64,000 nucleotides of DNA from an uncultured Verrucomicrobiae bacterium (GTDB lineage: Bacteria > Verrucomicrobiota > Verrucomicrobiia > Limisphaerales > UBA11358), in the NCBI GenBank assembly GCA_963755515.1, contig CAVWKA010000003.1, positions 4,418 to 68,417 on the forward strand, read 5' to 3'. Below are positions 19,670-62,497 of the stretch, one piece after another. The notes beneath the pieces were generated by a model. That model worked only from the letters and a program-made list of their open reading frames with translations. It did no database searches and had not been told where the DNA came from. How positions within the stretch are numbered: the first letter of the stretch is position 1; each line of letters starts with the position of its first letter. The position numbers were made by a program, and so were the translations under genes.

Positions 19670-19773
19670 TTTCCGGTTTATGGTTATAAATTGTGAGTGG
19701 AAATGGAGGAGATTGCATGCGAGCGGCATTTGCGGAGCCACTGGTGAATTCCCGTCAATCTGATTCGGGATTT

Positions 19774-20402: not shown

Positions 20403-20430
20403 ACATCCCCCGAAAGGGGGATGTGTTTCC
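20403..20430 (+). terminator. Rho-independent terminator after the response regulator
   Basis: acatccccc-gaaa-gggggatgt is a perfect 9-bp stem (20403-20411 / 20416-20424) followed by gtttcc. It begins 3 nt after the stop codon. Confidence 0.75.
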
Positions 20431-20668: not shown

Positions 20669-23600
20669 ATGAAAAAATCCGTCCTGCTGACTGCTGTCGC
20701 CTCTTTAATCTTTGGCGCGGCAATTATTGCAAACGCCCAAACGTATTCCAACGCCGTGATAAGTTTAAATCCGGTGGGATACTGGCCGTTGAACGAAACG
20801 ACTGCGCCGCCGCAACCGATAGACCTCGTGGCCCAAAACCTCGGGAGCTTGGGCGCGGCCGGGCAACGCCTATTACGGCGCGTGGTATCAGCCATCGGGA
20901 ACCACCTGGTACCTCACCAACAACATCGTCCAGGCGCCGGCGGTGACTTATACCAATGATGGCAGCATGGGCATGTTGTGCCAGGGCGCGCCGGGACAAT
21001 ACCTCATCGTTCCGCGCAACACCAACGGCGTCGCCAATTCAAGCATCGCCCTCAATCCCCCGTTCTCCATCGAGGCCTGGGTCAAAATTGGGGCAACCAA
21101 CAGCGCCCTGCGCGATATCGTCAGCCAGGGCGGTTCGGTGAACCTGAATATTGGCGGACCAAACACCAACAATCCCTATTACGGCGGCCTCGGCTCTGGA
21201 TGGGCCGGCGTCGAATTGGGGCAATATCAGGATTATATCTTTTTGCTGACGCAGTCCACCAACGCCGTTGGCAACAAGAACAGCGAACTGGACACTTCCA
21301 AATATAATACATACACGGGTTTTAAAACCGGTGAATGGGTCCATGTCGTGGCAACGTTCGACGGCTCGACGGAAACCATCTGGACCAACGGCGTCCAATG
21401 CGCATCGAAGACCAGTCCGGCCAACGCCATCGGCCAAAAGTATGTGCTGGATCCAACGACTCCGCTGATGATTGCCCGGCGGCAGCGATGTGACGGCAAG
21501 CTATGGCGTGGGCTTCCAGGGAACCATTGACGACGTCGCGATTTATACCAACGTCCTCTCGCAGACCAGCATTGACAACCATTACCAGGCCGCCTACGTC
21601 ACCAACAGCACTTTTCCCAGTTATACCAATGCGGTGCTGGCGGACGACCCGATCCTTTATTACCGTTTGAACGATCCGCAGGTGCAGACGAATGCCGGCT
21701 ATCCGAGCGGCAGTTTTCCTGTGGCCAATAACTATGGCAGCGCGGGCGCGGCCGGGGAGGGTGTTTATCAGCCTGGCACGACGCCGGGTGTGGCCGGCCC
21801 TTCTTACGCCGGCTTTGGCGCAAACAGCAAAGCCGTGGCATTCAACGGTTGGCTCGGCGGCGTGGATGTGGGCGGCGGCAATCTGCCGGCCAGCTTGAAC
21901 CCCACCAACACTTCACCGCTGACCGTCGTGACTTGGTTCCAGTCCGGTCCGGCTGATTCCCCGGGTCGGTTCCAGGAAATGTTGGGCCACGGAGATTCGT
22001 CGTATCGCATGTCGTTGGGACAGGTGGCGGGTGAAAATCATTTTAATCCCGGACCCGGCCCCGAACTGCAATTTACCACCGCAGCCTCCGTCGCGACCAA
22101 TGGTTTCGCTTTTAACGACGGCAACTGGCACATGGAGGCCGGCGTGTCCGATGGAACCAACGAGTATATGTACCTGGACGGCGCGCTGGCCCAGAGCAAT
22201 AACTCGCCCACGGGCATTAAGATTGCAGGCAACACCAATGACCTTCTCATCGGTGGTGACAGTGAATATACCTATGCCAGCTTTGGTTCGGCCAACACGG
22301 TCCGAACCTTCGATGGACAGGTCGCCCAGGTGGCCTTTTGGACCAACGCGCTGTCGGCGTCGCAAATTCAATCGCTGTTTAACGCAGCCGGAGTGCCGCC
22401 GTATATCTGGATGCAACCGGTTTCGCAAACCAACAATGCCGGGGTAAATATAACGATCGCTGCCGGGGTTCGGGGCAGTGCGCCGACCTTCCAATGGTAC
22501 CAAAACGGGGTGGGGCCTGTTTCGGGGCAGACCAGTATGGATACTCAGTTTCACTCCGGCAGTTTTAGGTGACGCAGGCAGCTATTACCTTGTGGCCAGG
22601 GATGCCGCCGGTTCGGTGACGAGTGCCGTCGTCAATCTGGTGCTTTACGGTCCGCCGGTCATCAACGAACAATCCAGCACGCAAATTGAGGTCTTCGCGG
22701 GAGCGAGTCCGGTTTTGAATGTGGAGGCTGGCGGCGCGCAACCGTTGTCCTATCAGTGGACTCTGAACAGCGACCCCATTGCCGGCGCGACCAATTCAAC
22801 CTATGCCGTTGCCAACGTCCAAACCAGCGGTACTTACGGCTGCACGGTGACCAATACTCTCGGCCAGACGCCAATTTCTTCGATTTCGCTCACGGTGCTT
22901 TCAGATCCGACGGCGCCGTATCCGCAGCAGGTTCTCGCCGATGGCCCGATGGACTATTACCGTCTGGATGAATCCAGCGGCACGACCGCATACGATTACG
23001 TCGGAGGCAACAATGCGACTTACACCAACGTCACGCTGGGCGTGCCGGGCTACAACTCGGAAGCCAGTGTCAAGAGCGACCCATCGGAGACAGCGGCTGA
23101 GTTTGGTGATTTTCCGCCGAACGACTACGCCGGGGATGTTCCCTCCTATGTCAATTTTGGCGCGCCCGCCGGCAGCAACGCCGAATTTTCGGTTGAAGCC
23201 TGGTTCACCGAATACCTCTATAGCAGTATCGGTGACGCCATCGTCGCTCTGGGTTACGGCAACGGCGGCGAGCAGTTCGTCCTGGACACCGGCGCGGGCA
23301 CCGCGGGTGACCTCCGGTTCGGGGTCCGCAATGCAGCCGGGACTTTCAGTTCGGCGAGCAGCAGCTATGCGCCGGCGGACGACGGATTGTGGCATCACGT
23401 GGTGGGCGTCTGCGACGAGGCGGGCGGCACCCTTTCTCTGTATATGGACGGAAAGCTGGTTGGGACAGGAACGATCACGGCCAAAAGCGGCTTGTTGGGC
23501 GCGACATCGCCGTTAAGCATCGGCGCCCGCCAGTCGGCGAACAATCACGGGACGAACTACGACGCGCAGTTTTATGGCGCCGTGGACGACGTTTCACTCT

Positions 23601-25428: not shown

Positions 25429-25445
25429 ACATCGTGATCACAGTG

Positions 25446-25477
25446 TTGGCGGGGATGCGACGCAGCGTCCCCGCCAA
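25446..25477 (+). other. Intergenic hairpin (10-bp perfect stem, 12-nt loop) between the LamG gene and the GH27 gene
   Basis: ttggcgggga-tgcgacgcagcg-tccccgccaa seen directly. No T-run follows, so it is not a classical terminator. Confidence 0.5.
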
Positions 25478-25484
25478 CCAGGCA

Positions 25485-27824
25485 AAAATGCAAAATAACG
25501 CCAGCAATCTTAAAATGAGCACCCAATGTCGGCCGGTCATGGTCGCATCGGTGATCGTGATGTTCATTTCACTCCGCAGCGCCCGGGGTTTGACGAATGG
25601 GCTGGCCCTGACTCCGCCGATGGGCTGGAACAGTTACAACCATTTCGCCTGCAACATTGATGAAAATATCATCGAGAGCGAGGCGGATGCCATGTGTACC
25701 AACGGCATGGAGGCTGCGGGTTATAGCTTTATCAACATTGACGACTGTTGGCAGACCAACCGTGACGCCAATGGTGTCCTTGTGGCGGACCCTGCCAAAT
25801 TCCCTCACGGCATCAAGGCGCTTGCCGATTATGTCCATTCCAAAGGTCTCAAGCTCGGCATTTATTCAGACCACGGAACTGTTACCTGCCAGGGCAAACC
25901 AGGCAGCTACGGCTACGAATACGTGGACGCGCTGACTTTCGCCTTGTGGGGCGTGGACTATTTGAAATACGACAACTGCAATCTGCCTCCCGGCGACAGC
26001 ACAAACGCCGATGACGCCAAAATGGCGGCCGCTTTGGGCCAAACCGGACGGCCAATCGTCTTCAGCCTTTGTGACTGGTCGTATGCTTCCTGGATGCCGG
26101 ATGACGGCAATTTATGGCGGACGACCTCTGACATTCAGGACACGTTTTCCAGTTTTGTCGCCAATCTGGGGGCGGACAGCCCAATGGCATTTGTGGCCGG
26201 CCCGGAACGGTGGAATGACCCGGACATGCTGGAAGTTGGCAATGGCGGGATGACGGCCACGCAGGATCAATCAGAGTTCAGCCTTTGGTGCATCGTCGGC
26301 GCGCCATTGATTGCCGGAAACGATCTGACCACGATGTCCGCGCAAACACTTGCCATATTAACCAATTCGGAAGTCATCGCGGTGGACCAGGACCCGGTGG
26401 GCGAGCAGGGGATTCAGGTGGCCGGTTCTTCTTTAAGGCAGGTTTGGTGCAAACCCCTGGGAACCAATTTCAACACCAAAGCAGTCGCCTTGTTCAATCT
26501 GACCAGCAGCGCAACCAGTATCAGCGTAAATTGGACCAACCTTGGATTGCAAGCCGGGCCGGCGACGGTGCGAGACTTGTGGGCGCACGCGGATTTGGGG
26601 ACATTCACGAATAGTTTCACCACCAACGTGCCTGGGGACGGAGCCGTAATGCTGAAGGTTGTCGGTACGGCCCCGGTGTTTCCCATCCCGGGCACCAACT
26701 ATCTGACAGAACTCCAGCCGGCTTATGCCTATACCGGTTCGGGAACGATTACCGCCAACAAAAGCATCGGCGGAAATGCCATCACGCTTAATGGCGTCAC
26801 CTACACAAACGGCATAGGCGTCAACTCCTATTCCGGTCTGGAATATTGCCTCGGCGGAATGGCCGCGCGTTTCCAGGCGGACATCGGGGTGGACGACGAG
26901 GTGGGCAGCAGTGGTTCCGTGGTGTTTCAGGTATTCGCCGATGGCCTCAAGATTTATGACAGTGGCGTTATGAAGGGCGGCGCGCCGCACCAGACCATCA
27001 ACGTGGACGTTACCGGCGTGAACCGGTTGACGCTTGGCGTGAACGACGCCGATGACGGAACCACCGATGACCACGCTGACTGGGCCGGACCGATGGTCAT
27101 CGTTTCAAATGCGGCGCCGGTGGCGCCTCTGCCGCCGGTTGGCCTGGCCGCCGCCGGGGGACAGCCGATTGCGCTGACGTGGCAAGCCACGCCGGGGGCC
27201 GCGGCTTACAATGTTTATCGTTCCACCTCCGGCAACGGCGCATTCACGAACATTGCCAACACGGTTTTACCAGATTACATGGACAGCAACGTGGTTGCCG
27301 GCACGACCTGCGATTATGCGGTTTCCAGCGTCGGAATTGGCGGAGAAAGCCCGGCTTCAACCGTCGCCAGCGCCACAGCCTGTCTGCCGCCGGCTGTGCC
27401 AACGGGTTTGACAGTAACCATTAGTGGCGCGCAAGCCATCCTCATTTGGAATCCCGTTCCGGGCGCCGCCACTTACACTGTTTTGCGAGCCACCAAGTCC
27501 ACGGCTTATACTCCCATCGCCACCGGCCTCGAGACTACGGCTTATACGGATACGAATCGGGCAACGGGCGCGATTTATTACTACGCCGTGGCCGCCGGCA
27601 ATGGTTGCAGCCAGAGTGCTTTTTCCCCCTTTGCGTTCGGCTCAACGAACGTCACCCTCGGCATCCGGTATTCCGGCAACAGCGTCATCCTGGCCTGGCC
27701 GCTGGGAACCTTGCAATCTGCCAGCCAACCGGGCGGCCCGTATAGTGATCTGACCGGCGCGACTATGTTTTACACGAATCCGCCATCCGGAGCCGAACAA
27801 TTTTACCGTGTCCGGGTTCAATAA
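25485..27824 (+). CDS. GH27 alpha-galactosidase (or alpha-N-acetylgalactosaminidase) with NPCBM-like domain, two Fn3-like domains and a C-terminal FYRV module
   Basis: Melibiase core [55 protein letters not shown]-like part [35 protein letters not shown]. Start 25485 or 25512 (signal peptide [18 protein letters not shown]); the ORF-track start 25434 would include the hairpin. Confidence 0.85.
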
Positions 27825-27876
27825 AATAAAAAATAAAAAATCCGGCGAAATTAACGTTCCACCGGTCAAAGATAGA

Positions 27877-28776
27877 ATGAAAAGCAAAATCAGAAGAATT
27901 GAAGAGAATGTCCGTCACGCCCGGAATGGCGGGAACGGAAAGGCTGCATATTCAGGGTTCACGTTAATCGAGTTGCTGGTGGTGATCTCCATCATCGCGA
28001 TTCTGGCGGCGATGTTGTTGCCGGCGCTGGCAGCGGCGAAACGCCGGGCACAGTCAATTCAGTGCATGAGCAATACCAAACAACTGGCGACGGCCTGGAT
28101 CATGTATGCCGGGGACAATAACGGCAATTTGGTCATCAATCATGCCGGCCAAAGCGCCAGTGATACGACTCCAAGCTGGGTGACCGGGTGGCTGGATTAC
28201 AGCGGCAATCCCGCGGACACAAACATTCAATTCCTGATTAGTCCCCAGTATTGCATGTTAGCCATCTACCTGAGGGACCCGGCCGTCTATAAGTGTCCGG
28301 CGGACATGAGCTGCCAATATGGTTTGAAGGGCCTTCCCCGGGTGCGCACTTATTCGATGAACGCGGCCCTTGGGCCGGATGCAATATCCATCCAGAACAG
28401 TTGGTTGCCGGTGACGGCCTATAAGGTTTATCTCAAAGAAAATGAAATGACAGTTCCCGACCCGTCAGACATGTGGGTATTTCTGGATGAAGACGTGGAC
28501 AGCATCAACGACGGCTCCTTTGCCGTCAAAATGCCTGCAACGGCCAAGGCTACGGAATGGGTTGACATGCCGGGAAAGGCCCATGGGAATTCCTGCGGCT
28601 TCTCTTTTGCGGATGGCCATTCGGAGATTCATAAATGGCTTGAACCCGGAAATATCGAAGCTCCCAATTACAGCACTTTGATCAAAACCGGCATCTTTGA
28701 ATTGGGCGACCCGGACATTCTTTGGATGGCCAAACACACCTCGACGTTTTCCGATGGCGAAGGGCTTCCTTATTAG
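27877..28776 (+). CDS. Prepilin-type N-terminal cleavage/methylation protein with H-X9-DG motif (DUF1559-type pseudopilin-like protein)
   Basis: [45 protein letters not shown], with [13 protein letters not shown] (H-X9-DG) near the C-terminus. Start at ATG 27877 (MKSKIRR). Confidence 0.85.
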
Positions 28777-28814
28777 TTGAAAACCAATCGTATTTCCGAG
28801 GGCAAAGGACGCTG

Positions 28815-31649
28815 ATGTTGCAAAAATCTGACGGACGTTATTATTTCATGATGGCTTTGCGCCGATTCAGGTCTGGCCAATTAAAGACCATTGCCGGAAT
28901 GGCGCTCATCTTGTGGGCGGCGATTTCCATTTCAAGCGCCGCCAATCTGGACGACTCGCAGGTGGACAGTTACAATCTCCGCATCGGCACGGAGACGTTT
29001 GCGGGCACGTATCAATTTACCACCAACACCCTGCTGGTTGAAACCGCCCAGGCCATCACCAATATGGGCAGCGACACCATCAAACTTTACATGGGCACGG
29101 ACACTTCCTACCAAAGCGGGGTCACGCTCACTTCCAATATCACGAATTTGTTGACGCTCGCGCGCGATGAGCCGAGCTATCATCAGGTCCTCGACATGCC
29201 CTTCCGGCATTTTATCATGTGGGAATATCCGTTTGCAAATTCGGACAGTTGGTGGGCCAACGGCTACAATGCGACGAAGGGCGCCGCGGACTACCAGGAA
29301 ATGTATGCTCTGACCAAATACCTTCTCACCAACTACAACAATTCCGGAAAAACGTTTTATCTCGGGCATTGGGAAGGCGACGGCTATCTCGACGTGGATG
29401 GCTGGTCAACGAATCCCCCGGCCATTACGATTCAGGGGATGATTGGCTGGCTCAACAACCGCCAGAAGGCCGTGGACGACGCCAAAGCGGCCACCGTATA
29501 TACCAATGTCTATGTATATAACTATGCGGAGTGCAATCGAGTCCAGGATGCCATGAAAAATGGCACCAACAATAACGAGCGTGTCATCAATTGCGTTGTT
29601 CCCTATGTTACCAACCTGGATTATTTGTCCTACTCCTCCTATGACTCGCAGAATCTAAGCGCGTCGGCCCTCTACAACACCCTGAATTATATGCAATCCA
29701 TGCTGCCGACCAACAAGGCGTCGGTGGTACCGGGCGAGCGCATGTGGATCGGCGAATATGGTTGGGGTACGGAATCCACCGCCGCGCAGGAGCCGCTGAT
29801 CCGGTCCTATATTCAGCGGTTGTTGGGCTGGAATTACAACGGCCAGTGCCTTCCGTTTATTCTCTACTGGGAAATGTATAGCAACTATAATCCCGGCGGG
29901 GGCACCAACTATTGCCTGATCAACTATTTGGACCAGGAAGCACCGGCATGGTATCTCCACAATTATTTTTACAACGATGCCCGGCTGGCGGTTGCGCAAT
30001 TCAGGGAGACGGACGGGCGGCTGCCTACCGACACGGAGTTCACGTCGCTGATGTCGCCGTTGTTGAACCAACCGTTGTCCGCGCCGGTGGCCCTCACGGT
30101 GGCGAACGCCGGCGCCGTCCTCGTCACCAATACCGTTGCCACCCTTTCGGGGACGCTTACCCAGGGGATTTACGGTGAAAGTGAAGCAGGAGTTTGGGTC
30201 TATTATGGATTGCAGGACGGCGGGACAACGGTCGGCAATTGGCAGGCTGGACGTTATGTGGGCATGAACACCAATTTCAATCCCCACACCTTCTCTGTCA
30301 CGCTCAACAACCTCGTGGGCGGCACCAATTATTTCTATCGCTTCTATGCCGCCAACTCCACGACCAATGCATGGGCGCCGGCATCATCGCAATTCAGCAC
30401 GACGACGATCGCCCCTTCGGGCTACGGTTCGAAGATGAAGATTTTTTTTTCGGGATACAACCGCAACGAGACCCTGACGGATTTTCCGATGCTGGTGGAA
30501 TTGAGCGCCAATCTGCCCGGCTTTTCCTACCGGCAATTTGCATCGCCCTCCGGCGGCGATTTGCGTTTCACCGACTCGAGCGGATTGTTGCCGATTCCGT
30601 ATGAGATTGATGAGTGGAACACCAACGGCGTTTCCAGCGTTTGGGTCAACGTGCCGTCACTCTCCCCCACGAACGATTTTGTCTGGGCCTATTGGGGCAA
30701 CCCGGCGGCGACCAACCCTCCGGATTACACGACCAACGGCGCGGCCTGGCCGGGTTTCGATTTGGTTTGGCACTTGAGAGAGACCGGGTTTCCGTATGCT
30801 GATAGCGCGCTCCAATGGCCGGCGCTGTCCGGCGTCGCCCCGGTACGCACCACCGGAATTGTCGGTTACGGTCAAGCCTTTAACGGGTCCTCGGATTATT
30901 TGAATGCCGGGAGCGTCAACACGCTGGGCAACGCCTTCACCCTGTCGGCGTGGGTGAACGTCTCGCCCGCGAACAGCAACATTCAGGTCGTATGGGCCAA
31001 TCAACAGGGCGGCTATGGTTCGCCCGGTTTTGCCCTGTTTGTTAATTCTTACAACACGACCAATGGCGCCCTTTTATTGGACACCGGCGATGGTGTCAAT
31101 GGCTCGGAATTATCCACCGCGGCCGGGGCCGTGAGCTTCGGCCAATGGCATTTGATTTCCGCGGCGATTAATCGCGCGGATAGCGCCCTGTCCCTCTATG
31201 TGGATGGCGCGTCTGTGCCGATTGTCAGTGGCGATCCAGTGGTATCTGACTTCGCCAACACCTCCGATTTGAATTTCGGCCGCTTCACCAACAATTATGA
31301 CTATTTTACCGGCACGATGGAGGAGGCGCGCATCCAGTCGGGCATTGAAGATTCAAATTGGGTTTGGGCAAGCTGGGAGACGGTCGTCTCCAACTCCGAT
31401 TTCGAAAATTACGCCGCGGCGACGCAACAATCGCCGGTGCTGGCCATTGGCATGGGCGGCGGCAATGCCATGACTTTCAACTGGCCGGGCAGCGGCGTCG
31501 GTTTTTCCCTTTACACGGCAACCAACCTGACACCGCCCGTCGCCTGGACGCCCGCCAACAGCCAGCCGACGCTCGTCAGCAATCAATGGCAGGTGACGCT
31601 GCCGACGGACAACAGCAGCTCCCGATATTATCGCCTCGAATCGCAATGA
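28815..31649 (+). CDS. Secreted multidomain protein: uncharacterised TIM-barrel-like putative glycoside hydrolase domain, Fn3-like domain, DUF2341, LamG and a C-terminal YYRL module
   Basis: Signal/anchor IAGMALILWAAISISSAA. The N-terminal ~400 aa carry candidate catalytic motifs FYLGHWEGDG and MWIGEYGWG. The DUF2341/LamG cassette is paralogous to the one in the LamG giant (MKIFFSGYNRNETLTDFPMLV..RFTDSSGLLPIPYEIDEWN..VWAYWGNP; FTLSAWVNVS..MEEARIQ). Start 28815 or 28848. Confidence 0.6.
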   Translation: MLQKSDGRYYFMMALRRFRSGQLKTIAGMALILWAAISISSAANLDDSQVDSYNLRIGTETFAGTYQFTTNTLLVETAQAITNMGSDTIKLYMGTDTSYQSGVTLTSNITNLLTLARDEPSYHQVLDMPFRHFIMWEYPFANSDSWWANGYNATKGAADYQEMYALTKYLLTNYNNSGKTFYLGHWEGDGYLDVDGWSTNPPAITIQGMIGWLNNRQKAVDDAKAATVYTNVYVYNYAECNRVQDAMKNGTNNNERVINCVVPYVTNLDYLSYSSYDSQNLSASALYNTLNYMQSMLPTNKASVVPGERMWIGEYGWGTESTAAQEPLIRSYIQRLLGWNYNGQCLPFILYWEMYSNYNPGGGTNYCLINYLDQEAPAWYLHNYFYNDARLAVAQFRETDGRLPTDTEFTSLMSPLLNQPLSAPVALTVANAGAVLVTNTVATLSGTLTQGIYGESEAGVWVYYGLQDGGTTVGNWQAGRYVGMNTNFNPHTFSVTLNNLVGGTNYFYRFYAANSTTNAWAPASSQFSTTTIAPSGYGSKMKIFFSGYNRNETLTDFPMLVELSANLPGFSYRQFASPSGGDLRFTDSSGLLPIPYEIDEWNTNGVSSVWVNVPSLSPTNDFVWAYWGNPAATNPPDYTTNGAAWPGFDLVWHLRETGFPYADSALQWPALSGVAPVRTTGIVGYGQAFNGSSDYLNAGSVNTLGNAFTLSAWVNVSPANSNIQVVWANQQGGYGSPGFALFVNSYNTTNGALLLDTGDGVNGSELSTAAGAVSFGQWHLISAAINRADSALSLYVDGASVPIVSGDPVVSDFANTSDLNFGRFTNNYDYFTGTMEEARIQSGIEDSNWVWASWETVVSNSDFENYAAATQQSPVLAIGMGGGNAMTFNWPGSGVGFSLYTATNLTPPVAWTPANSQPTLVSNQWQVTLPTDNSSSRYYRLESQ

Positions 31650-33298: not shown

Positions 33299-33305
33299 CC
33301 TTAAA

Positions 33306-35876: not shown

Positions 35877-38853
35877 ACTAAAATTCGCATGTGTTTATGC
35901 CGGCGCCCTTGCCGCCGCCTGCCTTGTTTCGGCGGAAGTGCCCGGCGAATTTCGGCCGCAGCCGGTGCTGCATCCGTTGGAACATGCCGGGGCCACTGGA
36001 ACAAACGTCCAGCCGCTGAATACCTATCCAGTTTCTCGCGCGCCCTTGGTGAACACCGCCGCGCGCAAACCGAAACTGGCGAACCCCGGTCAACCGGCGT
36101 TACGCGGCAACGAACTTGTTTTCAACGCGGGCTGGGAAATGGCCGAAGCGCCGGCGCTCAAGAACCCCGGCGGCGCCACGCTCTCCGAACCCGGCGTGGA
36201 CACGCGCGATTGGTATGACGCCACGGTGCCCGGCACGGTGCTGACGACGCTGGTCAATGAGGGAATCTATCCCGACCCGTACTATGGTTTGAACAATCTT
36301 TTGATCCCCGAAAGCCTGAATAAACAGGACTACTGGTACCGCACGGAATTCGTGGTGCCGAAAAAATTCTCCGGCCGCGAACTCACCCTCCAATTCAACG
36401 GCATCAATTACTACGCCGAAGTCTGGTTTAACGGCCAATACCTGGGCCATATCACCGGCGCGTTCATCCGCGGCAAGTTTGATGTGACGAAGCTGGCCAG
36501 GCCGGGTGATGAAAACGTGATTGCGGTGATGGTCGCGCCGCCGCCCGACCCTGGCATTCCCAGCGAGCAGTCCGTCAAATACGGTCCCGGCGATAACGGC
36601 GGCAAGATGTGTCTCGACGGTCCATCGTTTGAATGCACGGAAGGATGGGACTGGATTCCCGCGATTCGCGACCGGGACACCGGCATCTGGCAGGATGTGA
36701 TTTTGCGCGCGACCGGCCCGGTGATTCTCGGTGATCCGCAGGTCATCACGCTGTTGCCGTTGCCCGACACCTCGCGCGCGGATGTCACGGTCAACGCCGA
36801 ACTGCAAAACGCCTCCGACGCGGTCCAGCAGGGGACCTTGCGCGGCTCGTTTGAAGGCGTTTCCTTCGAGCAACCGGTGACCTTGCAACCCCGCGAAACC
36901 AAAACCGTCAGCTTCGCGCCGCAAGAGTTTCCGCAACTCACCGTCCAGCATCCGCGCTTGTGGTGGCCGAACGGCTATGGCAAACCCAATCTTTATCATT
37001 TGCAGTTGAGCTTCGTTACCGAGGACAATCAGGAGTCCGACCACGCGGCGACGCATTTCGGCATTCGCGAGTTGAGCTATGAATTTGAGGTAAAGAAACC
37101 GGACGGCACGCATGAGCGTGTCGAGTTCACGCCGTCATTGGCGCTTGGTGACAATGAAAAAATCATTGATAACCGCCGCGACACGATGGTTTGGGGCCTG
37201 GAAAACAAAGCCAAACGCGACGCCGCCGTCATCGCCGCGGGCGGCAAGCCTTCGGACAAGCCGTTCTGGTGGGGGCAACAGCAGGAAACCACCGTCGGCC
37301 TGTGGCCCGGCGCGGAAAATTCTCCCGCGCTCCGGGTGGTGGATGACACCAACATGGGACCGTATCTCGTTATCAAGGTGAACGGCCAAAAGATCGAATG
37401 CCTGGGCGGGGACTGGGGCATGGACGACGCCATGAAACGTGTTTCACGCGAGCGCCTCGAACCTTACATCCGCATGACCCGCGACGCGCACATGAACATG
37501 ATTCTCAACTGGGCCGGCCAAAGCACCTCGGACGCCCTGTATGATTTGTGCGACGAATACGGCATCCTGGTCTGGAACGATTTCTGGCGCAACACGGAGG
37601 CCTTCGATTACGCCCCGGTGGATTTCAATCTCTTCGCGAGCAATGCCGCGGATGTTCTCATGCGTGACCGCAATCATCCCAGCATCGCCCTTTGGTGCTC
37701 GGGCAACGAAGGGGTCTGCCCCGAACCATTGCATGAACGCTTGAACCAGCTTATTTACGAACTGGATGGCACCCGCTATTTTCAGCCCAATTCGCGCCTG
37801 ATCAATATGCGGAACAGCGGGCCATGGTCGAATTTGCCGCTGGACCAGTATTTCCACAATCTGAACCAGGGCTTCAGCACCGAAATCGGCGCCAGCTCGA
37901 TTCCCTCGGCGGAAACGATGCGCACGTTCATTCCCACGGCCGATTTGTGGCCTTACAATGACGTGTACGCCTATCACGATTTGCACTCGGAGGGCGCGGG
38001 CAGCAAAAGCTCCACCTTTAGCCGCATGGCCGCCCGTTATGGCGCGCCGCAAAACCTTGATGACCTCTGCCGGAAAGCCCAGATGTTGAACTACGAAACC
38101 ATTCGCGCCATCTACGAAGGGTTCAACAGCCGCATGTGGAATGATTGCAGCGGCGTGGTGATTTGGATGAGCCAGCCGTCGTGGCCCGATCTCCTTTGGA
38201 ATTTTTATTCCTGGGATTACGCTCCGGACGCCTGCCTCTTCGGCGCCATGAAAGGCGCCGAGCCGATCCATATCCAAATGAGCGTGCCGGAGTGCAAAGT
38301 GGACATCATCAACCACGGCGCCGAAGCGATAGACCACGCCACGGCAACGGCAACCATCTATAGCCTGTCCGGCCAACCCGAACAAAGCCGCAAAGAAAGT
38401 GTGGACGCCGGGGCGGACGCCTGCACCCATGCGTTCACGCTGGATTGGCCGGCGACGGGCGCGCACTTTGTCAAATTGGAATTGCGGGACAGCGCTGGCA
38501 AATTGCTTTCGCAGAACTTTTATTGGCACGCCCGCGAGGAATCACAGTTGCGGGAATTGAACTCCCTTCCGCAGACTCCCCTCCAGGGAGAGATGCGCGC
38601 GCGGCGCTCGGCGAAGGGATGGGTCGTTGATGGCCAGGTCACCAATGCCGGGAACACGCCGGCGGTGGAAGTGACGCTGGCCTTGCGTTCCGTCCGGACC
38701 GGCCAATACATCCTGCCGGTGTATTACGGCGACAATTATTTCTCGCTGTTGCCAGGTGAAACGCGCAAGTTCCACATCGAGTCCGGGGCCACTACGGAGA
38801 AACCGGAAGTGGGATTGACCGGCTGGAACATCCAGCCGTCCATCTTGCAATGA
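35863..38853 (+). CDS. Glycoside hydrolase family 2 (beta-mannosidase / exo-beta-D-glucosaminidase-like)
   Basis: GH2 sugar-binding N-domain (DWYDATVPGTVLTTLVNEGIYPDPYYGLNN..LQFNGINYYAEVWFNGQYLG), catalytic barrel (HPSIALWCSGNEG) and a long C-terminal beta-sandwich. The start overlaps the upstream gene's end. Confidence 0.8.
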   Translation: MTMTKLKFACVYAGALAAACLVSAEVPGEFRPQPVLHPLEHAGATGTNVQPLNTYPVSRAPLVNTAARKPKLANPGQPALRGNELVFNAGWEMAEAPALKNPGGATLSEPGVDTRDWYDATVPGTVLTTLVNEGIYPDPYYGLNNLLIPESLNKQDYWYRTEFVVPKKFSGRELTLQFNGINYYAEVWFNGQYLGHITGAFIRGKFDVTKLARPGDENVIAVMVAPPPDPGIPSEQSVKYGPGDNGGKMCLDGPSFECTEGWDWIPAIRDRDTGIWQDVILRATGPVILGDPQVITLLPLPDTSRADVTVNAELQNASDAVQQGTLRGSFEGVSFEQPVTLQPRETKTVSFAPQEFPQLTVQHPRLWWPNGYGKPNLYHLQLSFVTEDNQESDHAATHFGIRELSYEFEVKKPDGTHERVEFTPSLALGDNEKIIDNRRDTMVWGLENKAKRDAAVIAAGGKPSDKPFWWGQQQETTVGLWPGAENSPALRVVDDTNMGPYLVIKVNGQKIECLGGDWGMDDAMKRVSRERLEPYIRMTRDAHMNMILNWAGQSTSDALYDLCDEYGILVWNDFWRNTEAFDYAPVDFNLFASNAADVLMRDRNHPSIALWCSGNEGVCPEPLHERLNQLIYELDGTRYFQPNSRLINMRNSGPWSNLPLDQYFHNLNQGFSTEIGASSIPSAETMRTFIPTADLWPYNDVYAYHDLHSEGAGSKSSTFSRMAARYGAPQNLDDLCRKAQMLNYETIRAIYEGFNSRMWNDCSGVVIWMSQPSWPDLLWNFYSWDYAPDACLFGAMKGAEPIHIQMSVPECKVDIINHGAEAIDHATATATIYSLSGQPEQSRKESVDAGADACTHAFTLDWPATGAHFVKLELRDSAGKLLSQNFYWHAREESQLRELNSLPQTPLQGEMRARRSAKGWVVDGQVTNAGNTPAVEVTLALRSVRTGQYILPVYYGDNYFSLLPGETRKFHIESGATTEKPEVGLTGWNIQPSILQ

Positions 38854-41408
38854 GCCGTCGGAAAGAAAAATCAGACATGAAAATTCAATGGTTCATCGTC
38901 CTGTTTTTTGGCTGCTTGACCTTGGCCGCCCCGTCCCTATTTTCTGCGCCCGTTATGAGCAATACTGGTTGGTTTACCCTCGGCGCAATGCCCGCGCCAG
39001 CCTGGGACGGCAAAACGCTCTTGTTCCATGGCGCGCAAGGCACCCTCGCCATCACGCCGTTGTCCGACGATGTGATCCGCCTCCGGTTCACCACCCAACC
39101 CGCGTTTGGCCGCGACCACTCGTACGCCGTCGTCAACTACGATTTGGGCGCTCCGACGGTCAAAGCCAGCATCGGCTCGGATTCCGCCACGCTCGCCACC
39201 GCGTCGCTCAAAGTCATGGTGCAATATTCGCCCTTGCGGATTTCATTCGCGAATACCGCCGGTGAAATTTTGGATGCCGATGATCCGGCCCGTGGCATTT
39301 CAATGGCCGGGACGGAATTTCGCGTCGCCAAAAAACTCCGTGATGACGAACATGTTTATGGGTTTGGGGAGAAGACCGGTCGGCTCGACAAACGCGGCTG
39401 GCAACTTGGCGGCTACAACTATGTGATGTGGAATTCGGACACCCCGGCCTATGATTCGAGCACCGACCCGCTTTATGTGGACGTTCCGTTCTTCATGGTG
39501 ATGCGCCAGGGACAGGCCCACGGAATTTTTCTGGACAGCACTTGGCGAAGTTTTTTTGATGTTGGCCGCGAAGAGCCGGATTTGCTCACGTTCGGCGCCG
39601 ATGGCGGCGACCTCGATTATTACTTCATCAACGGGCCGGACCCGAAGCAGGTGATTGAGCGTTACACCGCGCTGACGGGACGGATGCCCTTGCCGCCGTT
39701 GTGGTCGCTCGGTTATCAGCAGTGCCGCTGGAGTTATTATCCGGAATCCCGCGTCCGGTTGCTGGCCGACACCTTTCGCGAAAAGCAAGTGCCCGCCGAC
39801 GGCCTGTGGCTCGATATCCACTACATGAAGGATTACATGCCCTTCACTTGGGACCCCGACCGGTTTCCAAATCCAAAGAAAATGATTTCGGATTTGAGCG
39901 CGCAGGGATTTCACCTCGTCACCATCCTGGATGGCCATCCGCCCGCGTTGAAAGGTTATGCGCCGTATGATTCCGGAATTGCCGGCAATCATTTCGTCAA
40001 AAATCCCGACGGGAGCGTTTATGAAGGCCCCGTCTGGCCATCGCAGGCCGGCGAACATCCGCTGAGCGTCTTCCCGGATTTCAGTTCGCCGTCCACGCGC
40101 GAATGGTGGGGTAATCTTTACAAGAGCCTGCTCGACGTCGGCGTCGCCGGCATTTGGAATGATATGGACGAGCCGTCTGTGTTCGACATGCCGAACGGGA
40201 CGATGCCTGCGGACGTGGTTTTCGACAATGAAGGCCAGCCGGCCTCCAGCCTCGAAATGCACAATACCTACGGCCAGCTCATGAGCCGTTCCACGTTTGA
40301 GGGCTTGAGCCGGTTGCAGCCGGATAAACGAGCATTTGTGCTCACGCGTTCCAGTTTCGCCGGGGGCCAGCGTTATGCCGCGGTTTGGACCGGCGATGCC
40401 ACCGCGGATTGGTCATCGCTCCGCCAATCCGTATCCATGCTGCTCGGCCTGGGAATTTCCGGGTTTCCGTTTGTCGGCAGTGACATCGGCGGATTCGCCC
40501 GCATGCCCTCGGCTGAACTTTGCACGCGCTGGCTGCAAGCCGCCGTTTTCAATCCCTTCATGCGCATGCACACCTCCATTGAGAACCCGGACAAGGAGCC
40601 GTGGTCGTTCGGCTGGCGCTACGCGGCCATCAACAAACGCGCCATCGAATTACGCTACGAACTCCTGCCTTACATCTACAACGCAATGCAACAGGCCAGC
40701 CAAACCGGCGTGCCGGCGTTGCGTCCGTTGTTCCTGGATTATCCCGGTGACGAACTCACGGCCAAGATTGATGATGAATTTTTGTTCGGCTCCGACTTGC
40801 TGGTGGCGCCGGTGCTATGGGAAGGGGTGGAACAACGCTCTGTCTATCTTCCACCCGGCGTATGGTTCGATTATTGGACTGGCCGGCGCTATTCCGGCAA
40901 TTCAACAATCGCCCTCCCGGTCACGATTGATTCCATCCCCATCTTCGTGCGCGGCGGCGGCTTTATTTTCCGCCAGCCCGTGGTGCAAAACACGGGTGAA
41001 ATGCCCGGCAACCCTTTGCGTGTCTTGATTGCGCCCGCCGCAAAATCCGAATCGTTCCTGTACGAAGATGACGGTGAAAGCATGGCCTATCGCAATGGCG
41101 ATTTCATGAAACGCGTCTTCCTTCAAAGCCGCGATGCGCAATCGCTCACCGTCGGGATTTCCGCGCCGAAAGGTCCTTACCGTCCCGCCCGGCGCGACCT
41201 GATTCTCGAAACATGGATGGACCGTGAACCCGGCACGGTGACGGAGCAGTCGGCCAACGGGGCGGCGAAGACATTGTCCCGAATGGGTCCCGATGATTTG
41301 GCCCGGTCGCCGTCCGGCTGGTCCTATTCCAACGGACTCTTGACGGTGAAGGACACGGACCATTTTGACGCGGTCAGTTACACAATTCAAGCCGGGCCGC
41401 TGAACTGA
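38850..41408 (+). CDS. Glycoside hydrolase family 31 (alpha-glucosidase/alpha-xylosidase-like)
   Basis: GH31 signatures GIWNDMDEPSVF (nucleophile Asp region) and AAVWTGDATADW (acid/base region). Signal peptide WFIVLFFGCLTLAAPSLFSA. ATGA overlap with the GH2 stop at 38850-38853. Confidence 0.9.
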   Translation: MSRRKEKSDMKIQWFIVLFFGCLTLAAPSLFSAPVMSNTGWFTLGAMPAPAWDGKTLLFHGAQGTLAITPLSDDVIRLRFTTQPAFGRDHSYAVVNYDLGAPTVKASIGSDSATLATASLKVMVQYSPLRISFANTAGEILDADDPARGISMAGTEFRVAKKLRDDEHVYGFGEKTGRLDKRGWQLGGYNYVMWNSDTPAYDSSTDPLYVDVPFFMVMRQGQAHGIFLDSTWRSFFDVGREEPDLLTFGADGGDLDYYFINGPDPKQVIERYTALTGRMPLPPLWSLGYQQCRWSYYPESRVRLLADTFREKQVPADGLWLDIHYMKDYMPFTWDPDRFPNPKKMISDLSAQGFHLVTILDGHPPALKGYAPYDSGIAGNHFVKNPDGSVYEGPVWPSQAGEHPLSVFPDFSSPSTREWWGNLYKSLLDVGVAGIWNDMDEPSVFDMPNGTMPADVVFDNEGQPASSLEMHNTYGQLMSRSTFEGLSRLQPDKRAFVLTRSSFAGGQRYAAVWTGDATADWSSLRQSVSMLLGLGISGFPFVGSDIGGFARMPSAELCTRWLQAAVFNPFMRMHTSIENPDKEPWSFGWRYAAINKRAIELRYELLPYIYNAMQQASQTGVPALRPLFLDYPGDELTAKIDDEFLFGSDLLVAPVLWEGVEQRSVYLPPGVWFDYWTGRRYSGNSTIALPVTIDSIPIFVRGGGFIFRQPVVQNTGEMPGNPLRVLIAPAAKSESFLYEDDGESMAYRNGDFMKRVFLQSRDAQSLTVGISAPKGPYRPARRDLILETWMDREPGTVTEQSANGAAKTLSRMGPDDLARSPSGWSYSNGLLTVKDTDHFDAVSYTIQAGPLN

Positions 41409-41437
41409 AAGCGCTTCATTGAAATGAATCCCCGCTC

Positions 41438-41748
41438 CCATAAGGTTTGTAGTTCCGCGTTCACGCGGTCCCTTTGTTTCTTCGCGTCCGTTGCATGAGA
41501 CCATGAGGTTTGTAGTTCCGCGTTCACGCGGCCCCTTTGTTTCTTCGTGTCCATTGCATGAGACCATGAGGTTTGTAGTTCCGCGTTCACGCGGCCCCTT
41601 TGTTTCTTCGCGTCCATTGCATGAGACCGTGAGGTCTGTAGTTCCGCGTTCACGCGGCCCCTTTTGTTTCTTCGCGTCCATTGCGTGAGACCATGAGGTT
41701 TGTAGTTCCGCGTTCACGCGGCCCCTTTGTTTCTTCGTTCCATTGGTG
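41438..41748. repeat. Tandem array of a 63-bp unit, about 4.9 copies, each with hairpin ccgcg-ttca-cgcgg
   Basis: Unit ccatgaggtttgtagttccgcgttcacgcggcccctttgtttcttcgcgtccattgcatgaga starts at ~41438, 41501, 41564, 41627 and 41690. The whole unit is conserved, so there are no spacers. Confidence 0.9.
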
Positions 41749-42089
41749 TTAAAAATTTCTGCTTTCTTCTTTCTGTTTTTCCCCCGTCCCGCGCAGCAGC
41801 CCCCTTTTTTAGCCTTCAGCCTTTTATTTGAGGGTAGCGCGGACATTCCTGTCTGCGGGTTCGCGGGACATTCCTGTCCCGTGTTTCTCTTTTTCGTTTC
41901 AGCCTTCCTCCTGTTCATAACCTGTTGCCTTCTTTTCTTCATTCTTCACTTTGCGTTCGCAGGCAAACAGGGCTTCTGGAAATCACTCGTTGTTCCCTTC
42001 CGGAATACGTCCCCTCCAAAGCGCCAGAGGGCCGGCGCAGTCCAAAAGCTGGCCCGAATTTCCGGCGGTCTCCACGCAGTCGCTTGTCG

Positions 42090-42309
42090 TCTTGAAGTGC
42101 GGTGGCTGTGACACCGCTTTCAATCTGAGGGCGATCCCCAAATGTTCAAGCGTCACCTCAAGGATGAATCCGTGGACCTCGTTTATCTCGGTCCGCCCTT
42201 CAAATCCGCAACCCGAATACGCCGCCCCGCCGCAATAAGGCCGCCTTTGGCAAGTTATCTGCTCAAGAAAATCGGCCGTCGGCGCGGCATCTTCCAGAGT
42301 TGGCCGTGA
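42090..42309 (+). pseudogene. Degenerate N-terminal remnant of an N6/N4 DNA methyltransferase (DPPF motif region)
   Basis: My translation from 42142: MFKRHLKDESVDLVYLGPPFKS.., preceded in frame by ..EGDPQ. This fits the methylase N-terminal pattern YGDnlevLrrHikDESVDLVYLDPPFNS, with D mutated to G. Stops and frame changes lie on both sides, and no downstream catalytic domain is present. Confidence 0.5.
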
Positions 42310-42836
42310 ATCGAATCCGGTTGAATCGCTTTTGATAAGAGCAGTCTGCCTTTGAGTTTCCTGGAATCGGTTCCGGCCGTGGACGCCAAGCTCAAAGCGC
42401 CGAACACGGCGGATGAGAAGTTTGAGGACGTGGTGAATTCGGCGAAGAACGCGGCTGTCTTGGTGTTGGTGTATTGACATGAAAACTGGCTGATAAAACG
42501 GACACCAAAACAGCTAAAACGGGTATAATCGGGTTAAGCAAAAAATCAGCCGTTCCTCTTGCTGGTCGAAATTCAAATTGGCGCGGGACAGCAATTAGAA
42601 ACGGCTGAGAAAAACCAGGGGATTGGAAAAAAGGTTGAAAAAATGACTTGTAACCCTGTGGAGCAGGAAGAAAATCACGAATAAAGCCCACCCCGGTCGT
42701 GGGCATGAAACCAAACCCAACGCCGCTCTCGTCGCTCAGGGCTGACCTCGCACCCACATTTCGCCAAAAAGAGGCTTGATATGCTCCGGCCACGTGGCTA
42801 AAACCCCATTGTTGGGAAAATAACGCCCCGTAATCC

Positions 42837-62476: not shown

Positions 62477-62497
62477 CTGTTCACAAGGATAATTGAG

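Follow-up and report, generated by a model that had tools for sequence, protein, structure and literature searches.

The window, the whole 64,000-nt stretch of DNA analysed here, contains an operon-like cluster of 21 kb whose ORFs, from 20669 to 41408, all lie on the plus strand. ORF calls bear out the same-strand run of the original prediction, ORF ends agree with its ATGA overlaps at 31646-31649 and 38850-38853, and ORF ends together with the junction sequence confirm a 14-nt overlap at 35863-35876. Its domain calls for G1, G2, G3, G4, G6, G7, G8 and the S53 peptidase are upheld by Pfam, and the signal peptides or anchors claimed for all products correspond to signal-like or prepilin N-termini, as judged by eye. 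Related loci, labelled L001, L002, etc., belong to metagenome-assembled genomes (MAGs) of Limisphaerales-type Verrucomicrobiia.

Regulators, binding proteins and glycosidases of the cluster

As predicted, Pfam scans place a Y_Y_Y kinase and a NarL regulator directly upstream of the cluster. The sensor histidine kinase (15525..19666, plus strand, ~1380 aa), studied by Pfam, PDB search and alignment to L037, comprises a signal or transmembrane segment, a seven-bladed lectin propeller of the PLL type (aa ~40-370), Reg_prop propellers (1.3e-41) and a Y_Y_Y domain (1.6e-15). It is collinear with an intact 1444-codon ORF in L037, and its C-terminal ~190 aa align with the L037 kinase. The PLL lectin domain was overlooked previously. 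Matches of the N-terminus to PLL2, PHL and PLL in the PDB range from E 1e-64 to 1e-46, the PLL2 match (E 1e-64) covering aa 59-320 of a 342-aa query, which marks it as a propeller of the PLL family; its closest propeller homologues carry PF26607. A stand-alone PLL-like gene lies directly upstream of G4-G5 in L004, and the sequence around the nearest PLL-kinase homologues (L034, L035) ends too early to inform. The NarL/LuxR-type response regulator (19693..20400, plus strand, likely ATG at 19774) has Response_reg (2.6e-26) and GerE (9.8e-17) domains. Its orthologues (54-86% identity) occur upstream of G1 in L010, L011, L021, L022, L024, L027, L028 and L037. Between regulator and G1, a hairpin rich in G+C, with a T-rich tail on either strand (20403..20424), resembles a terminator, so that G1 probably opens a new transcript. 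No common operator upstream of G1 is seen by eye across 14 loci.

G1 (20669..25428, plus strand), examined by Pfam on fragments and by tblastn against its L002 orthologue, encodes a secreted protein of ~1585 aa with the signal peptide MKKSVLLTAVASLIFGAAIIANA and the domain order LamG-LamG-Ig-Ig-LamG-Ig-Ig-DUF2341-LamG, followed by a C-terminal module. By tblastn it is collinear with intact orthologues of 1599-1655 aa, including that of L002. It was presented originally as a single gene; instead, the ORF is broken by four frameshifts (near 20855, 21477, 22548 and 24660), and three more (~17530, ~19050 and ~19281) split the kinase, none of them recorded before. With seven frameshifts in these two genes, the locus may be inactive in this genome. 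Decay, which would make true pseudogenes of sensor and G1 and leave the enzymes unregulated and unused, is possible yet doubtful. The 16 kb from G2 to G8 are free of frameshifts, which points to decay, as does the fourth G1 frameshift, a 1-nt deletion relative to L012 and L015; against it, neither premature stops nor large deletions are seen, split genes occur throughout the window (AcrB-like, gene 46869-47926, KaiC-like) and other long-read metagenome contigs of relatives (L004, L035) are fragmented in the same way. Such fragmentation in both the window and these contigs makes assembly indel errors at least as likely a cause.

Three glycosidases belong to the cluster. G2 (25434..27824, plus strand) combines an alpha-galactosidase-type GH27 domain with NPCBM and the C-terminal module (Melibiase_2 2.6e-75, PF16499 254 bits, NPCBM 4.1e-43; rice alpha-galactosidase 1UAS, E 1e-101), and its GH27 is found in five related genome loci. 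G8 (38850..41408, plus strand) is of the GH31 alpha-glucosidase type (Glyco_hydro_31_2nd 1.8e-119, PF01055 399 bits), with maltase-glucoamylase, alpha-glucosidase II and glucosidase II as best PDB matches and orthologues in L001/L005, L021, L022 and L024; an exact-sequence look-up of its product gave no match. Family domains exceeding curated thresholds support the predicted assignment of G2 to GH27 and of G8 to GH31. G7 (35863..38853, plus strand), a GH2 enzyme of the beta-mannosidase/exo-beta-glucosaminidase clade, shows the GH2 N-terminal, Ig, TIM and C-terminal Ig domains plus Ig_GlcNase in Pfam. It shares this five-domain architecture, full-length alignment and the nucleophile Glu with CsxA (2VZS; PDB match 7e-60) and beta-mannosidases (2JE8, 5N6U; 1e-51 to 1e-47), and differs from all of them by an insertion of ~100 aa (aa ~405-506). 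In the alignment with CsxA, D469 and E541 correspond to SGNEG, the acid/base motif, and STE, the nucleophile. G7 carries Asn-Glu, as in beta-mannosidases, where CsxA has Ser-Asp469, and exo-beta-glucosaminidase is rejected as a name for it; the glucosamine option of the original prediction is not supported. D469 belongs to the acidic pocket in which CsxA accommodates the amino group. A second glycosidase group, with two GH78 genes and a Y_Y_Y kinase, lies 12 kb from the cluster.

G3 (27808..28776, plus strand, likely ATG at 27877) encodes a GspG-like pseudopilin. Both its prepilin motif (G|FTLIELLVV) and its C-terminal motif (H-x9-DGH-x-E-x-HKW) are conserved in 19 orthologues. A class III signal peptide with Glu at +5, followed by a hydrophobic helix, makes it type II secretion pseudopilin- or type IV pilin-like, with matches to N_methyl (8.1e-8), PF07963 (32 bits, cut-off 21.2) and TIGR02532 (27.7 bits, cut-off 16.3). 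Against the GspG equivalog TIGR01710 it reaches 36.6 bits, below the cut-off of 88.85 and over the N-terminal 73 positions only; its 250-aa C-terminal domain differs from that of GspG.

A GH-A-like barrel coupled to phosphoesterases

G4 (28848..31649, plus strand), a secreted protein of ~933 aa, was studied by structure model (pLDDT 86, pTM 0.82), Foldseek and homologue alignment. It is laid out as a (beta/alpha)8 barrel (aa ~35-410) followed by FN3-like, DUF2341 and LamG domains and the C-terminal module; its C-terminal 440 aa and the C-terminus of G1 are paralogous (61% and 42% identity). The candidate acid/base E175 (GHWEGD) and nucleophile E302 (IGEYGW) are both invariant in 27 homologues. 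In the model, E175 follows strand 4, which ends at residue 172, and E302 lies within strand 7 (298-303); this barrel with a Glu after strands 4 and 7 is predicted to be of clan GH-A, a domain that went unnoticed in the earlier reading of the locus. The best Foldseek matches are all to GH-A families or to enzymes designed from a GH10 xylanase. They include GH10, GH5_18, GH39 PslG, GH2, GH1 and GH164 (E 1e-5 to 1e-4, ~10% identity, TM 0.4-0.5), and because the barrel is equally weakly similar to many GH-A families, its specificity cannot be read from the fold.

Searches of the PDB by phmmer and profile gave no sequence relatives of G4, and the barrel lies outside every Pfam and NCBIfam family. 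It has hundreds of unannotated homologues, and homologues likewise lack precomputed families. The barrel is a candidate for a new glycoside hydrolase family, unclassified with respect to Pfam, NCBIfam and the PDB, and may correspond to a structurally unsolved CAZy family. Contexts of stand-alone homologues of the barrel (L032, L033) are unrelated and uninformative.

G5 (31646..33298, plus strand), analysed by motifs and Foldseek, is an exported metallophosphoesterase-like protein of 550 aa. The G4 stop codon and the G5 start codon share an ATGA in 25 of 26 loci and a GTGA in the remaining one. GDQID, GNHD, H342 and GHGH are invariant, with TDEQ as first motif versus the DxH of calcineurin-like metallophosphoesterases. 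Foldseek retrieves purple acid phytase/phosphatase and PhoD (E 3e-8 to 8e-6, TM 0.24-0.32) with a model of only pLDDT 63, which suggests with moderate confidence a purple-acid-phosphatase-like fold. G5 resembles purple acid phosphatases/phytases and PhoD in having a beta-sandwich at the N-terminus and then a putative metallophosphoesterase core with GDxxD, GNHD and GHxH; identity to these is ~10%, and the TDEQ motif and an extra C-terminal beta-sandwich set G5 apart. The GDxxY tyrosine, the ligand that gives purple acid phosphatases their colour, is an aspartate in G5. Pfam gave no match to G5 (none to Metallophos at E<=0.01), nor did profile searches of NCBIfam and PDB sequences give a meaningful one; NCBIfam has no names for G1, G2, G4, G5 or the S53 product.

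G6 (33303..35876, plus strand) joins a YncE/lactonase-type beta-propeller to a PF04185 phosphoesterase, a phospholipase C/acid phosphatase family (NCBIfam acid_phos_Burk, 7.9e-10). Of the two phosphoesterases originally called here, G6 is backed by its Pfam family, while the label of G5, which has none, comes from motifs and fold. Against the nearest relative, G6 stands out as a clean indel: it is absent from L001/L005 and present in L006, L008, L012, L015, L022, L024 and L037. In L037, G4 is joined by the ATGA overlap to G6 instead of G5. In essentially all loci G4 has a phosphoesterase coupled to it, as would suit a phosphorylated substrate.

Extent and conservation of the unit

The unit ends after G8 in five tandem 63-bp repeats and a terminator-like hairpin (41438..41883, plus strand). 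The repeats (63-bp x4.9, 41438-41745), each a CCGCG-TTCA-CGCGG hairpin with a T-rich tail, precede the terminator-like hairpin with a 9-bp stem at 41862-41883. In promoter and terminator scans, which yield consensus matches only, terminator-like hairpins are found solely before G1 and after G8.

Beyond this spacer, the original prediction added an S53 peptidase with a shared C-terminal module. The repeats and the module stand; membership in the locus does not. The S53 product (pro-kumamolisin and Ig by Pfam) lies in a 5.5-kb segment (41390-46917), low in GC and bounded by repeats, that is missing from the closest relative L005, and no related locus has an orthologue. The module (~75 aa, common to G1, G2, G4 and S53) is always terminal in orthologues of G1, G2 and G4. 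Across the library, 2591 cluster representatives contain it, frequently in tandem copies, and it is rejected as a dedicated sorting signal tying S53 to the locus; as a widespread repeat domain, it is no evidence for such a link. Also rejected as a member is the 343-aa gene downstream of GH31 in L005 (46869-47926 here), since it is not conserved in other loci.

Comparison with 27 genome loci, for which G5 served as anchor, gives the common order NarL regulator, G1, G3, G4, G5 and GH2. As most were retrieved via G5, its presence is given by construction and only that of the neighbours is informative. G4 is directly upstream of G5 in 23 of the 26 judgeable loci, GH2 follows G5 or G6 in 21 of 24, G3 lies between G1/GH27 and G4, or in L025 directly before G5, in 18 of 20, and G1 is present in 17 of 19, plus two probable cases; the NarL regulator precedes G1 in seven of the G5-anchored loci. 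A kinase-anchored search, independent of G5, recovered kinase-regulator-G1-G4 in L037 and a kinase adjoining G1 in L036, and gene-call views of L001-L004 are consistent with the tblastn synteny. Departures exist: G3 is absent from L009, L024 and L037 while the remaining cluster persists, and in L025, which has no G4, G3 sits directly before G5. Variant clusters carry GH92 (L022, L024), GH35 and GH30_2-LamG (L009) or a sulfatase (L025), and in L018 a solitary G5 is immediately preceded by a GH29 fucosidase.

Lack of co-conservation in relatives, which would have counted against the original prediction, is the opposite of what synteny reveals: the cluster is strongly co-conserved. The conserved core consists of G1, G3, G4, G5 and GH2, with sensor kinase and NarL regulator upstream; its phosphoesterase is normally G5, and G6 in one genome. 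GH27, GH31 and G6 are accessory. Order, strand and the 4-nt G4/G5 overlap are kept in distant relatives whose proteins are only 45-80% identical, as in a conserved operon-like unit. This contradicts the view that unrelated genes for secreted CAZymes have come together by chance in a genome rich in them, a very remote prospect even though such genes are plentiful in verrucomicrobial genomes and the other glycosidase group is only 12 kb away. The cluster is a conserved trait of uncultured soil and peat Limisphaerales-type Verrucomicrobiia, and no description of it was found in literature searches with DUF2341, DUF1559, H-X9-DG, Laminin_G_3 and Limisphaerales.

The surface capture originally predicted for the LamG/DUF2341 proteins and the pseudopilin is a putative role, to which positional conservation and analogy with the literature point. 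DUF2341 proteins encoded in type IV pilus loci are proposed tip adhesins (PMC4858521); as here, they are large and secreted, and their genes adjoin a pilin-like gene. Unlike those loci, this cluster has no pilus ATPase, platform or secretin genes nearby, and one of its DUF2341 proteins, G4, is also enzyme-like (PMC4858521). Another parallel is the alginate-induced CAZyme cluster of the verrucomicrobium Verruconatronum alginivorum, which likewise places a GspG/PulG-like pseudopilin from a large paralogous family in a SusC/D-less, substrate-specific enzyme cluster; alginate lyases there contrast with the GH-A-like barrel, phosphoesterases and GH2 here, and in the passages searched neither LamG/DUF2341 giants nor a lectin-type sensor were found (PMC13274419).

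An adhesin system in which G1, G3 and G4 serve pilus-associated attachment, with a secondary part for the neighbouring enzymes, would accord with the proposed tip adhesins and with the maintained position of G3 next to the DUF2341-LamG proteins. It is nevertheless a poor candidate: the G4 barrel keeps its catalytic glutamates and translational coupling ties G4 to a phosphoesterase, conservation of GH2 matches that of G1 and G3, G3 is missing from three loci that otherwise retain the cluster, and pilus assembly genes are absent. In a bolder and less likely reading, G3 and the DUF2341-LamG cassette of G1/G4 could be a PVC-specific glycan-capture device on a T2S/T4P-like fibre, the functional counterpart of SusC/D-associated binders, and the translationally coupled G4-G5 pair could be a new enzyme complex, the founder of a new GH family, acting on glycans that phosphate esters or phosphodiester bridges block.

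Substrate, mechanism and comparison with known systems

The locus reads, with reasonable likelihood, as a SusC/D-less CAZyme cluster (PUL-like operon) with an upstream two-component pair, for which a phosphate-decorated, mannose-containing heteroglycan of eukaryotic type is favoured. It probably digests a phosphate-decorated complex glycan, the favoured candidates being a glycoprotein glycan of fungi, protists or invertebrates, or a phosphoglycan. From the substrate first predicted, the phosphorylated character fits the coupling of G4 to phosphoesterases. The alpha-Gal/alpha-Glc part derives from variable genes, since GH27, GH31 and G6 are accessory, and the protein-linked part falls with S53, which is outside the conserved unit. 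As accessory enzymes vary between genomes, a single common substrate may not exist.

It is tempting to propose a sequence of events for the favoured glycan. The lectin propeller of the sensor would bind a sugar epitope of the substrate, fucosylated or O-methylated by analogy with PLL, and the NarL regulator would turn on a single long transcript from G1 to G8. G1 and G4, through their common 440-aa DUF2341-LamG cassette, would keep the polymer on the cell surface and might themselves be docked on a short pseudopilus containing G3. The G4 barrel would then cut the glycan backbone while G5, with G6, strips phosphate mono- or diester groups that obstruct the glycosidases, and the fragments would be trimmed by GH2, GH27 and GH31.

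Two other substrates deserve consideration. Most homologues of the PLL-type propeller are fused to peptidoglycan hydrolases (GH25 muramidase, M23, CHAP, amidases), and PhoD, which has a role in teichoic-acid turnover, is among the fold matches of G5; two phosphoesterases with an alpha-glucosidase and an alpha-galactosidase would also suit a decorated poly(glycerol/ribitol phosphate). The cluster might then degrade bacterial wall glycopolymers, teichoic-acid-like and decorated with alpha-Glc/alpha-Gal, from Gram-positive necromass or prey, the lectin sensing wall sugars. This seems unlikely, because the core is devoid of GlpQ-type glycerophosphodiesterase, muramidase, amidase and peptidase, GH27 and GH31 are outside it, and variant enzymes of the GH92, GH35 and GH29 types suggest mannose, galactose and fucose glycans in preference to teichoic acids. 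Phosphorus could instead be the main target, with glycosidases that merely expose phosphate esters to G5 and G6. Coupling of G4 to a phosphoesterase throughout and the purple acid phytases and phosphatases as nearest folds of G5 agree with this idea, which is nonetheless improbable given adjacent regulators that are a lectin/Y_Y_Y sensor and NarL rather than PhoR/PhoB, the absence of a phosphate transporter and a coding capacity devoted mostly to binding modules and glycosidases.

Few Verrucomicrobiota are in culture, although they rank among the most abundant bacteria of soils. For the question of how polymers are captured and broken down by them without SusC/D, the cluster offers a compact, conserved and testable unit. 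It contributes the G4 barrel as a candidate new glycoside hydrolase family and, coupled to it, G5 as a divergent phosphoesterase family that hints at phosphate-masked glycans. A sensor kinase has recruited a lectin propeller, and the conserved adjacency of G3 and the DUF2341-LamG proteins makes them a defined pair with which the idea of glycan capture by pili can be tested. Should the substrate prove to be a phosphorylated glycan of eukaryotic origin, the cluster would also connect the turnover of carbon with that of phosphorus in fungal or faunal necromass in soil.

Compared with known systems, the sensor region ~40-370 is a full-length homologue of the PLL/PHL propeller lectins of Photorhabdus (6RFZ, 5MXE, 5C9O; PMC12203525) and has the same repeated W-x-x-W...LGG blades; those lectins are soluble, whereas here the propeller forms the N-terminal part of a histidine kinase in the membrane. 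Close in organization are the Bacteroidota PULs with Y_Y_Y (hybrid two-component) sensors. Both have single-substrate CAZymes beside a periplasmic Reg_prop/Y_Y_Y sensor, secreted or surface products and modular accessory glycosidases. Bacteroidota PULs rely on SusC/SusD and TonB-dependent transport. As the original prediction held, Pfam scans of all long plus-strand ORFs in 20669-41408 reveal neither TonB-dependent receptor (SusC) nor SusD, tblastn maps and Pfam scans of extra ORFs give none in the related loci, and no transporter gene is found in Pfam scans of the cluster ORFs. The cluster is not a canonical Bacteroidota PUL, defined by adjacent susC and susD. With GH27, GH2 and GH31 beside a histidine kinase and a NarL regulator, it is a CAZyme gene cluster. 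The Y_Y_Y hybrid of Bacteroidota is one protein, whereas kinase and NarL-type regulator are separate here; the sensor has an additional PLL lectin propeller, and the pseudopilin and giant LamG proteins occupy the place of the binding proteins. Collectively, this is a novel version of a known, PUL-like kind of locus, and it contains two unclassified enzyme families, the G4 barrel and G5.

Gene content and conservation of the cluster

The glycan-degradation cluster is real and is conserved in soil Verrucomicrobiia; it lacks SusC/D and is immediately preceded by the genes of a two-component pair. The original prediction of such a locus holds in outline across relatives. In the window, a Reg_prop/Y_Y_Y histidine kinase (15525-19666, + strand) and a NarL-type regulator (19693-20400, +) precede eight + strand genes, G1-G8. 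G1 (20669-25428) encodes four LamG domains with Ig domains and DUF2341, G2 (25434-27824) a GH27 domain with NPCBM, homologous to plant-type alpha-galactosidase, and G3 (27808-28776) a protein with a prepilin-type N-terminus. G4 (28848-31649) joins DUF2341 and LamG to a 400-aa N-terminus with no family match, and G5 (31646-33298) has no match in Pfam. They are followed by G6 (33303-35876), with a beta-propeller and a PF04185 phosphoesterase, and by the GH2 and GH31 genes G7 (35863-38853) and G8 (38850-41408). The predicted 4-nt ATGA overlaps at 31646 and 38850 agree with the ORF ends, as does, together with the sequence of the junction, the 14-nt overlap at 35863-35876; every product has the expected signal-like or prepilin N-terminus when the sequences are judged by eye. 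A terminator-like hairpin (20403-20424) separates the regulator from G1, and five repeat-borne hairpins plus a terminator-like 9-bp stem (41862-41883) lie 3' of G8. Since a scan by consensus matches only found no convincing terminator hairpin between G1 and G8, the eight genes would be consistent with a single transcript. Over the first ~20 kb of the window the GC skew is strongly positive (+0.12 to +0.21), and from there to 48 kb it stays near zero; the switch coincides with the stretch between the regulator and G1, a junction conserved in relatives.

The G5 family is large and well conserved in Verrucomicrobiia MAGs (65-91% identity). A search of one genome per GTDB species, with a G5 alignment as query, gave 27 loci, onto which all window proteins were mapped; as G5 served as the anchor, its own presence in these loci says nothing, and the evidence lies in its neighbours. 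G4 lies directly upstream of G5 in 23 of 26 judgeable loci, and GH2 downstream, directly or past G6, in 21 of 24. G3 precedes G4 (or G5 in L025, a related locus without G4) in 18/20, and G1 is found upstream in 17, plus 2 probable cases, out of 19. The NarL regulator stands upstream of G1 in seven loci. G6, GH27 and an orthologous GH31 occur in six, five and four loci of this census, respectively. Gene calls with precomputed Pfam matches in four related loci (L001-L004) give the same picture. Metagenome contigs were also scanned independently, with the N-terminal half of the kinase as anchor; this recovered kinase-regulator-G1-G4 in contig L037, a kinase adjoining G1 in L036 and a kinase-regulator pair in L040. 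The overlap of the G4 stop with the G5 start is CAATGA in 25/26 loci and GTGA in the remaining one; in L037, the same overlap couples G4 to G6, the other phosphoesterase. Because the neighbours of G5 co-occur, the kinase-anchored scan agrees and this overlap is kept, the cluster is a real unit. Its core comprises the kinase/regulator, G1, G3, G4, the coupled phosphoesterase and GH2. The gene set originally proposed thus stands in outline, apart from accessory genes taken as core.

Reading frames and segments outside the unit

G1 is not one open frame, as had been assumed. Its coding frame runs in the order 1, 2, 0, 1, 0, with four shifts near 20855, 21477, 22548 and 24660, the last of which reflects the loss of one base compared with two relatives. 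Despite these breaks, G1 can be aligned over its whole length with intact orthologues of 1599-1655 aa. The kinase gene is broken at three places; in L037 its collinear counterpart is an uninterrupted ORF of 1444 codons. The original prediction overlooked the frameshifts in both genes. Long-read assembly indel errors are a good explanation, because splitting of this kind recurs in the long-read contigs of relatives and other genes in the window are also split, namely an AcrB-like gene (6067-9256, -), a gene at 46869-47926 whose 343-aa product is intact in the nearest relative, L005, and a KaiC-like gene (48247-49732). Real gene decay may instead be the cause, as the 16 kb of G2-G8 show zero frameshifts; the shifts are due to one or the other. 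The region 48247-51401 holds the KaiC-like double ATPase, which seems to be frameshifted, and after it a hybrid histidine kinase/response regulator. A second glycosidase group occupies 53778-63967 (-), with two alpha-L-rhamnosidases of family GH78 (1005 and 1175 aa) and a further Reg_prop/Y_Y_Y histidine kinase.

L005 DNA is 90-92% identical to the window and collinear with 25124-33304 and 35857-41390, then with 46917-47921. Since collinearity resumes at 35857 after 33304, G6 (33304-35857) is a clean indel relative to L005. The 5.5-kb segment 41390-46917 is absent from this relative, and its GC content is 0.50 versus 0.57-0.60 in the cluster. It includes the predicted repeat-rich 1.4-kb spacer, which contains a 63-bp tandem repeat (five units, x4.9), each unit a small hairpin whose tail is T-rich. 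The segment also carries an N-terminal piece of a DNA methylase (near 42143), the gene for the S53 peptidase (42837-45545) and repeats of REP-like type. A perfect 20-nt direct repeat, with copies at 41806 and 45697, flanks the methylase piece together with S53. Another tandem repeat, of 104 bp (4.9 copies, 90% matches), occupies 2-507 of the window. The S53 peptidase, found in none of the G5-anchored loci and carried by a foreign segment missing in L005, is not a member of the locus, contrary to the original prediction.

S53 shares with G1, G2 and G4 a C-terminal module of ~75 aa (25201-25425, 27597-27821, 31392-31646 and 45288-45542) that ends in F/Y-Y-R-hydrophobic and has no Pfam or NCBIfam model. 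In G1, G2 and G4 orthologues, its position is terminal without exception. A profile search of 1.84 billion representatives finds it in 2591 of them, often as tandem arrays, which reach 22 copies. Such a distribution shows the module to be a widespread extracellular domain that is not specific to this locus; it looks like an undescribed extracellular repeat domain. With S53 outside the unit and the module widespread, the idea of a protein-linked substrate loses its only support.

Enzymes, sensor and putative substrate

The N-terminal 450 aa of G4 have 628 homologues at E<=1e-3, nearly all without any Pfam domain, and no PDB chain is matched by phmmer or by profile. The AlphaFold model, built with 27 homologues and of good confidence (pLDDT 86, pTM 0.82), is a (beta/alpha)8 barrel. 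Its Foldseek matches (E 1e-5 to 1e-4, TM 0.4-0.5, identity ~10%) are confined to clan GH-A (GH10, GH5_18, GH39 PslG, GH2, GH1, GH164) and to designed enzymes derived from a GH10 xylanase. Two invariant glutamates, E175 (GHWEGD) after strand 4 and E302 (IGEYGW) within strand 7, have in the model the classic clan GH-A acid/base and nucleophile layout. Because of this barrel, its invariant glutamates and the lack of a PDB sequence match, G4 is predicted to be an enzyme and not a lectin-fold protein alone, and its barrel may represent an as yet unclassified GH family; this catalytic domain had been missed. The last 440 aa of G4, made up of DUF2341, LamG and the module, have a paralogous counterpart at the C-terminus of G1 (61% and 42% identity). 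Barrels of this type also exist as stand-alone 500-600-aa proteins with an FN3-like domain, in unrelated contexts (contigs L032, 10001-11800, and L033, 10001-11575); one such gene adjoins an exopolysaccharide export cluster (Wzz, Poly_export).

G5 has the invariant motifs GDQID, GNHD, H342 and GHGH, and its model, of moderate confidence (pLDDT 63), matches purple acid phytases/phosphatases and PhoD (E 3e-8 to 8e-6). G6 is a YncE-type propeller joined to a PLC/acid-phosphatase-family domain. G7 is closest to CsxA glucosaminidase (7e-60) and beta-mannosidases; its acid/base position is Asn-Glu, as in beta-mannosidases, whereas CsxA has Ser-Asp469. G8 is an alpha-glucosidase-type GH31 (glucosidase-II-like).

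The sensor carries a lectin domain, likewise overlooked. Kinase residues ~40-370 (15615-16640) form a full homologue of the Photorhabdus PLL/PHL seven-bladed lectins (E 1e-64). The closest homologues sharing the PLL and Reg_prop architecture come from Pedosphaera-like MAGs, and a PLL propeller joined to a Y_Y_Y histidine kinase seems to be an uncommon arrangement, limited to these bacteria. Other PLL-like propellers mostly occur in Actinobacteria as fusions to peptidoglycan hydrolases (GH25, M23, CHAP, amidases), a pattern suggestive of a general role in targeting cell walls or glycans. Since L004 has a stand-alone PLL-like gene directly upstream of G4-G5, the lectin module accompanies the cluster in two different arrangements.

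Some related loci contain additional genes: a GH92 alpha-mannosidase between GH2 and GH31 (L022 and L024), GH30_2-LamG and GH35 (L009), or a sulfatase and its radical-SAM maturase (L025). In L018 (8508-11521), a solitary G5 homologue follows a GH29 alpha-L-fucosidase gene at a distance of 75 nt, and the opposite strand nearby encodes a PIG-L-family deacetylase of 846 aa. The beta-mannosidase-like motif of GH2, the glucosidase-II-like GH31, the putative fucose/methyl-sugar lectin domain on the sensor and the constant phosphoesterase together favour, as substrate, a phosphate-decorated, mannose-containing heteroglycan of eukaryote type. The main alternative would be a teichoic-acid-like bacterial polymer.

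Pseudopilin and proposed surface capture

No account of this cluster was found in the searchable literature. Its most valuable features are the G4 barrel family, the coupling of G4 to a phosphoesterase and the conserved pairing of a pseudopilin with DUF2341-LamG proteins. G3 orthologues retain two motifs, G/A↓FTLIELLVV for cleavage and methylation and H-x9-DGH-x-E-x-HKW in the C-terminal part, and GspG models match G3 at the N-terminus only. Three clusters that are complete in other respects (L009, L024 and L037) lack G3. Analogies exist in known systems. The alginate-induced cluster of Verruconatronum alginivorum contains a PulG-like pseudopilin with 67 paralogues, and a pseudopilin is over-expressed on alginate (PMC13274419). 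Archaeal type IV pilus loci encode large DUF2341 proteins, proposed to be tip adhesins (PMC4858521). By analogy with both, the original proposal that the pseudopilin and the LamG/DUF2341 proteins may form a capture apparatus is reasonable.
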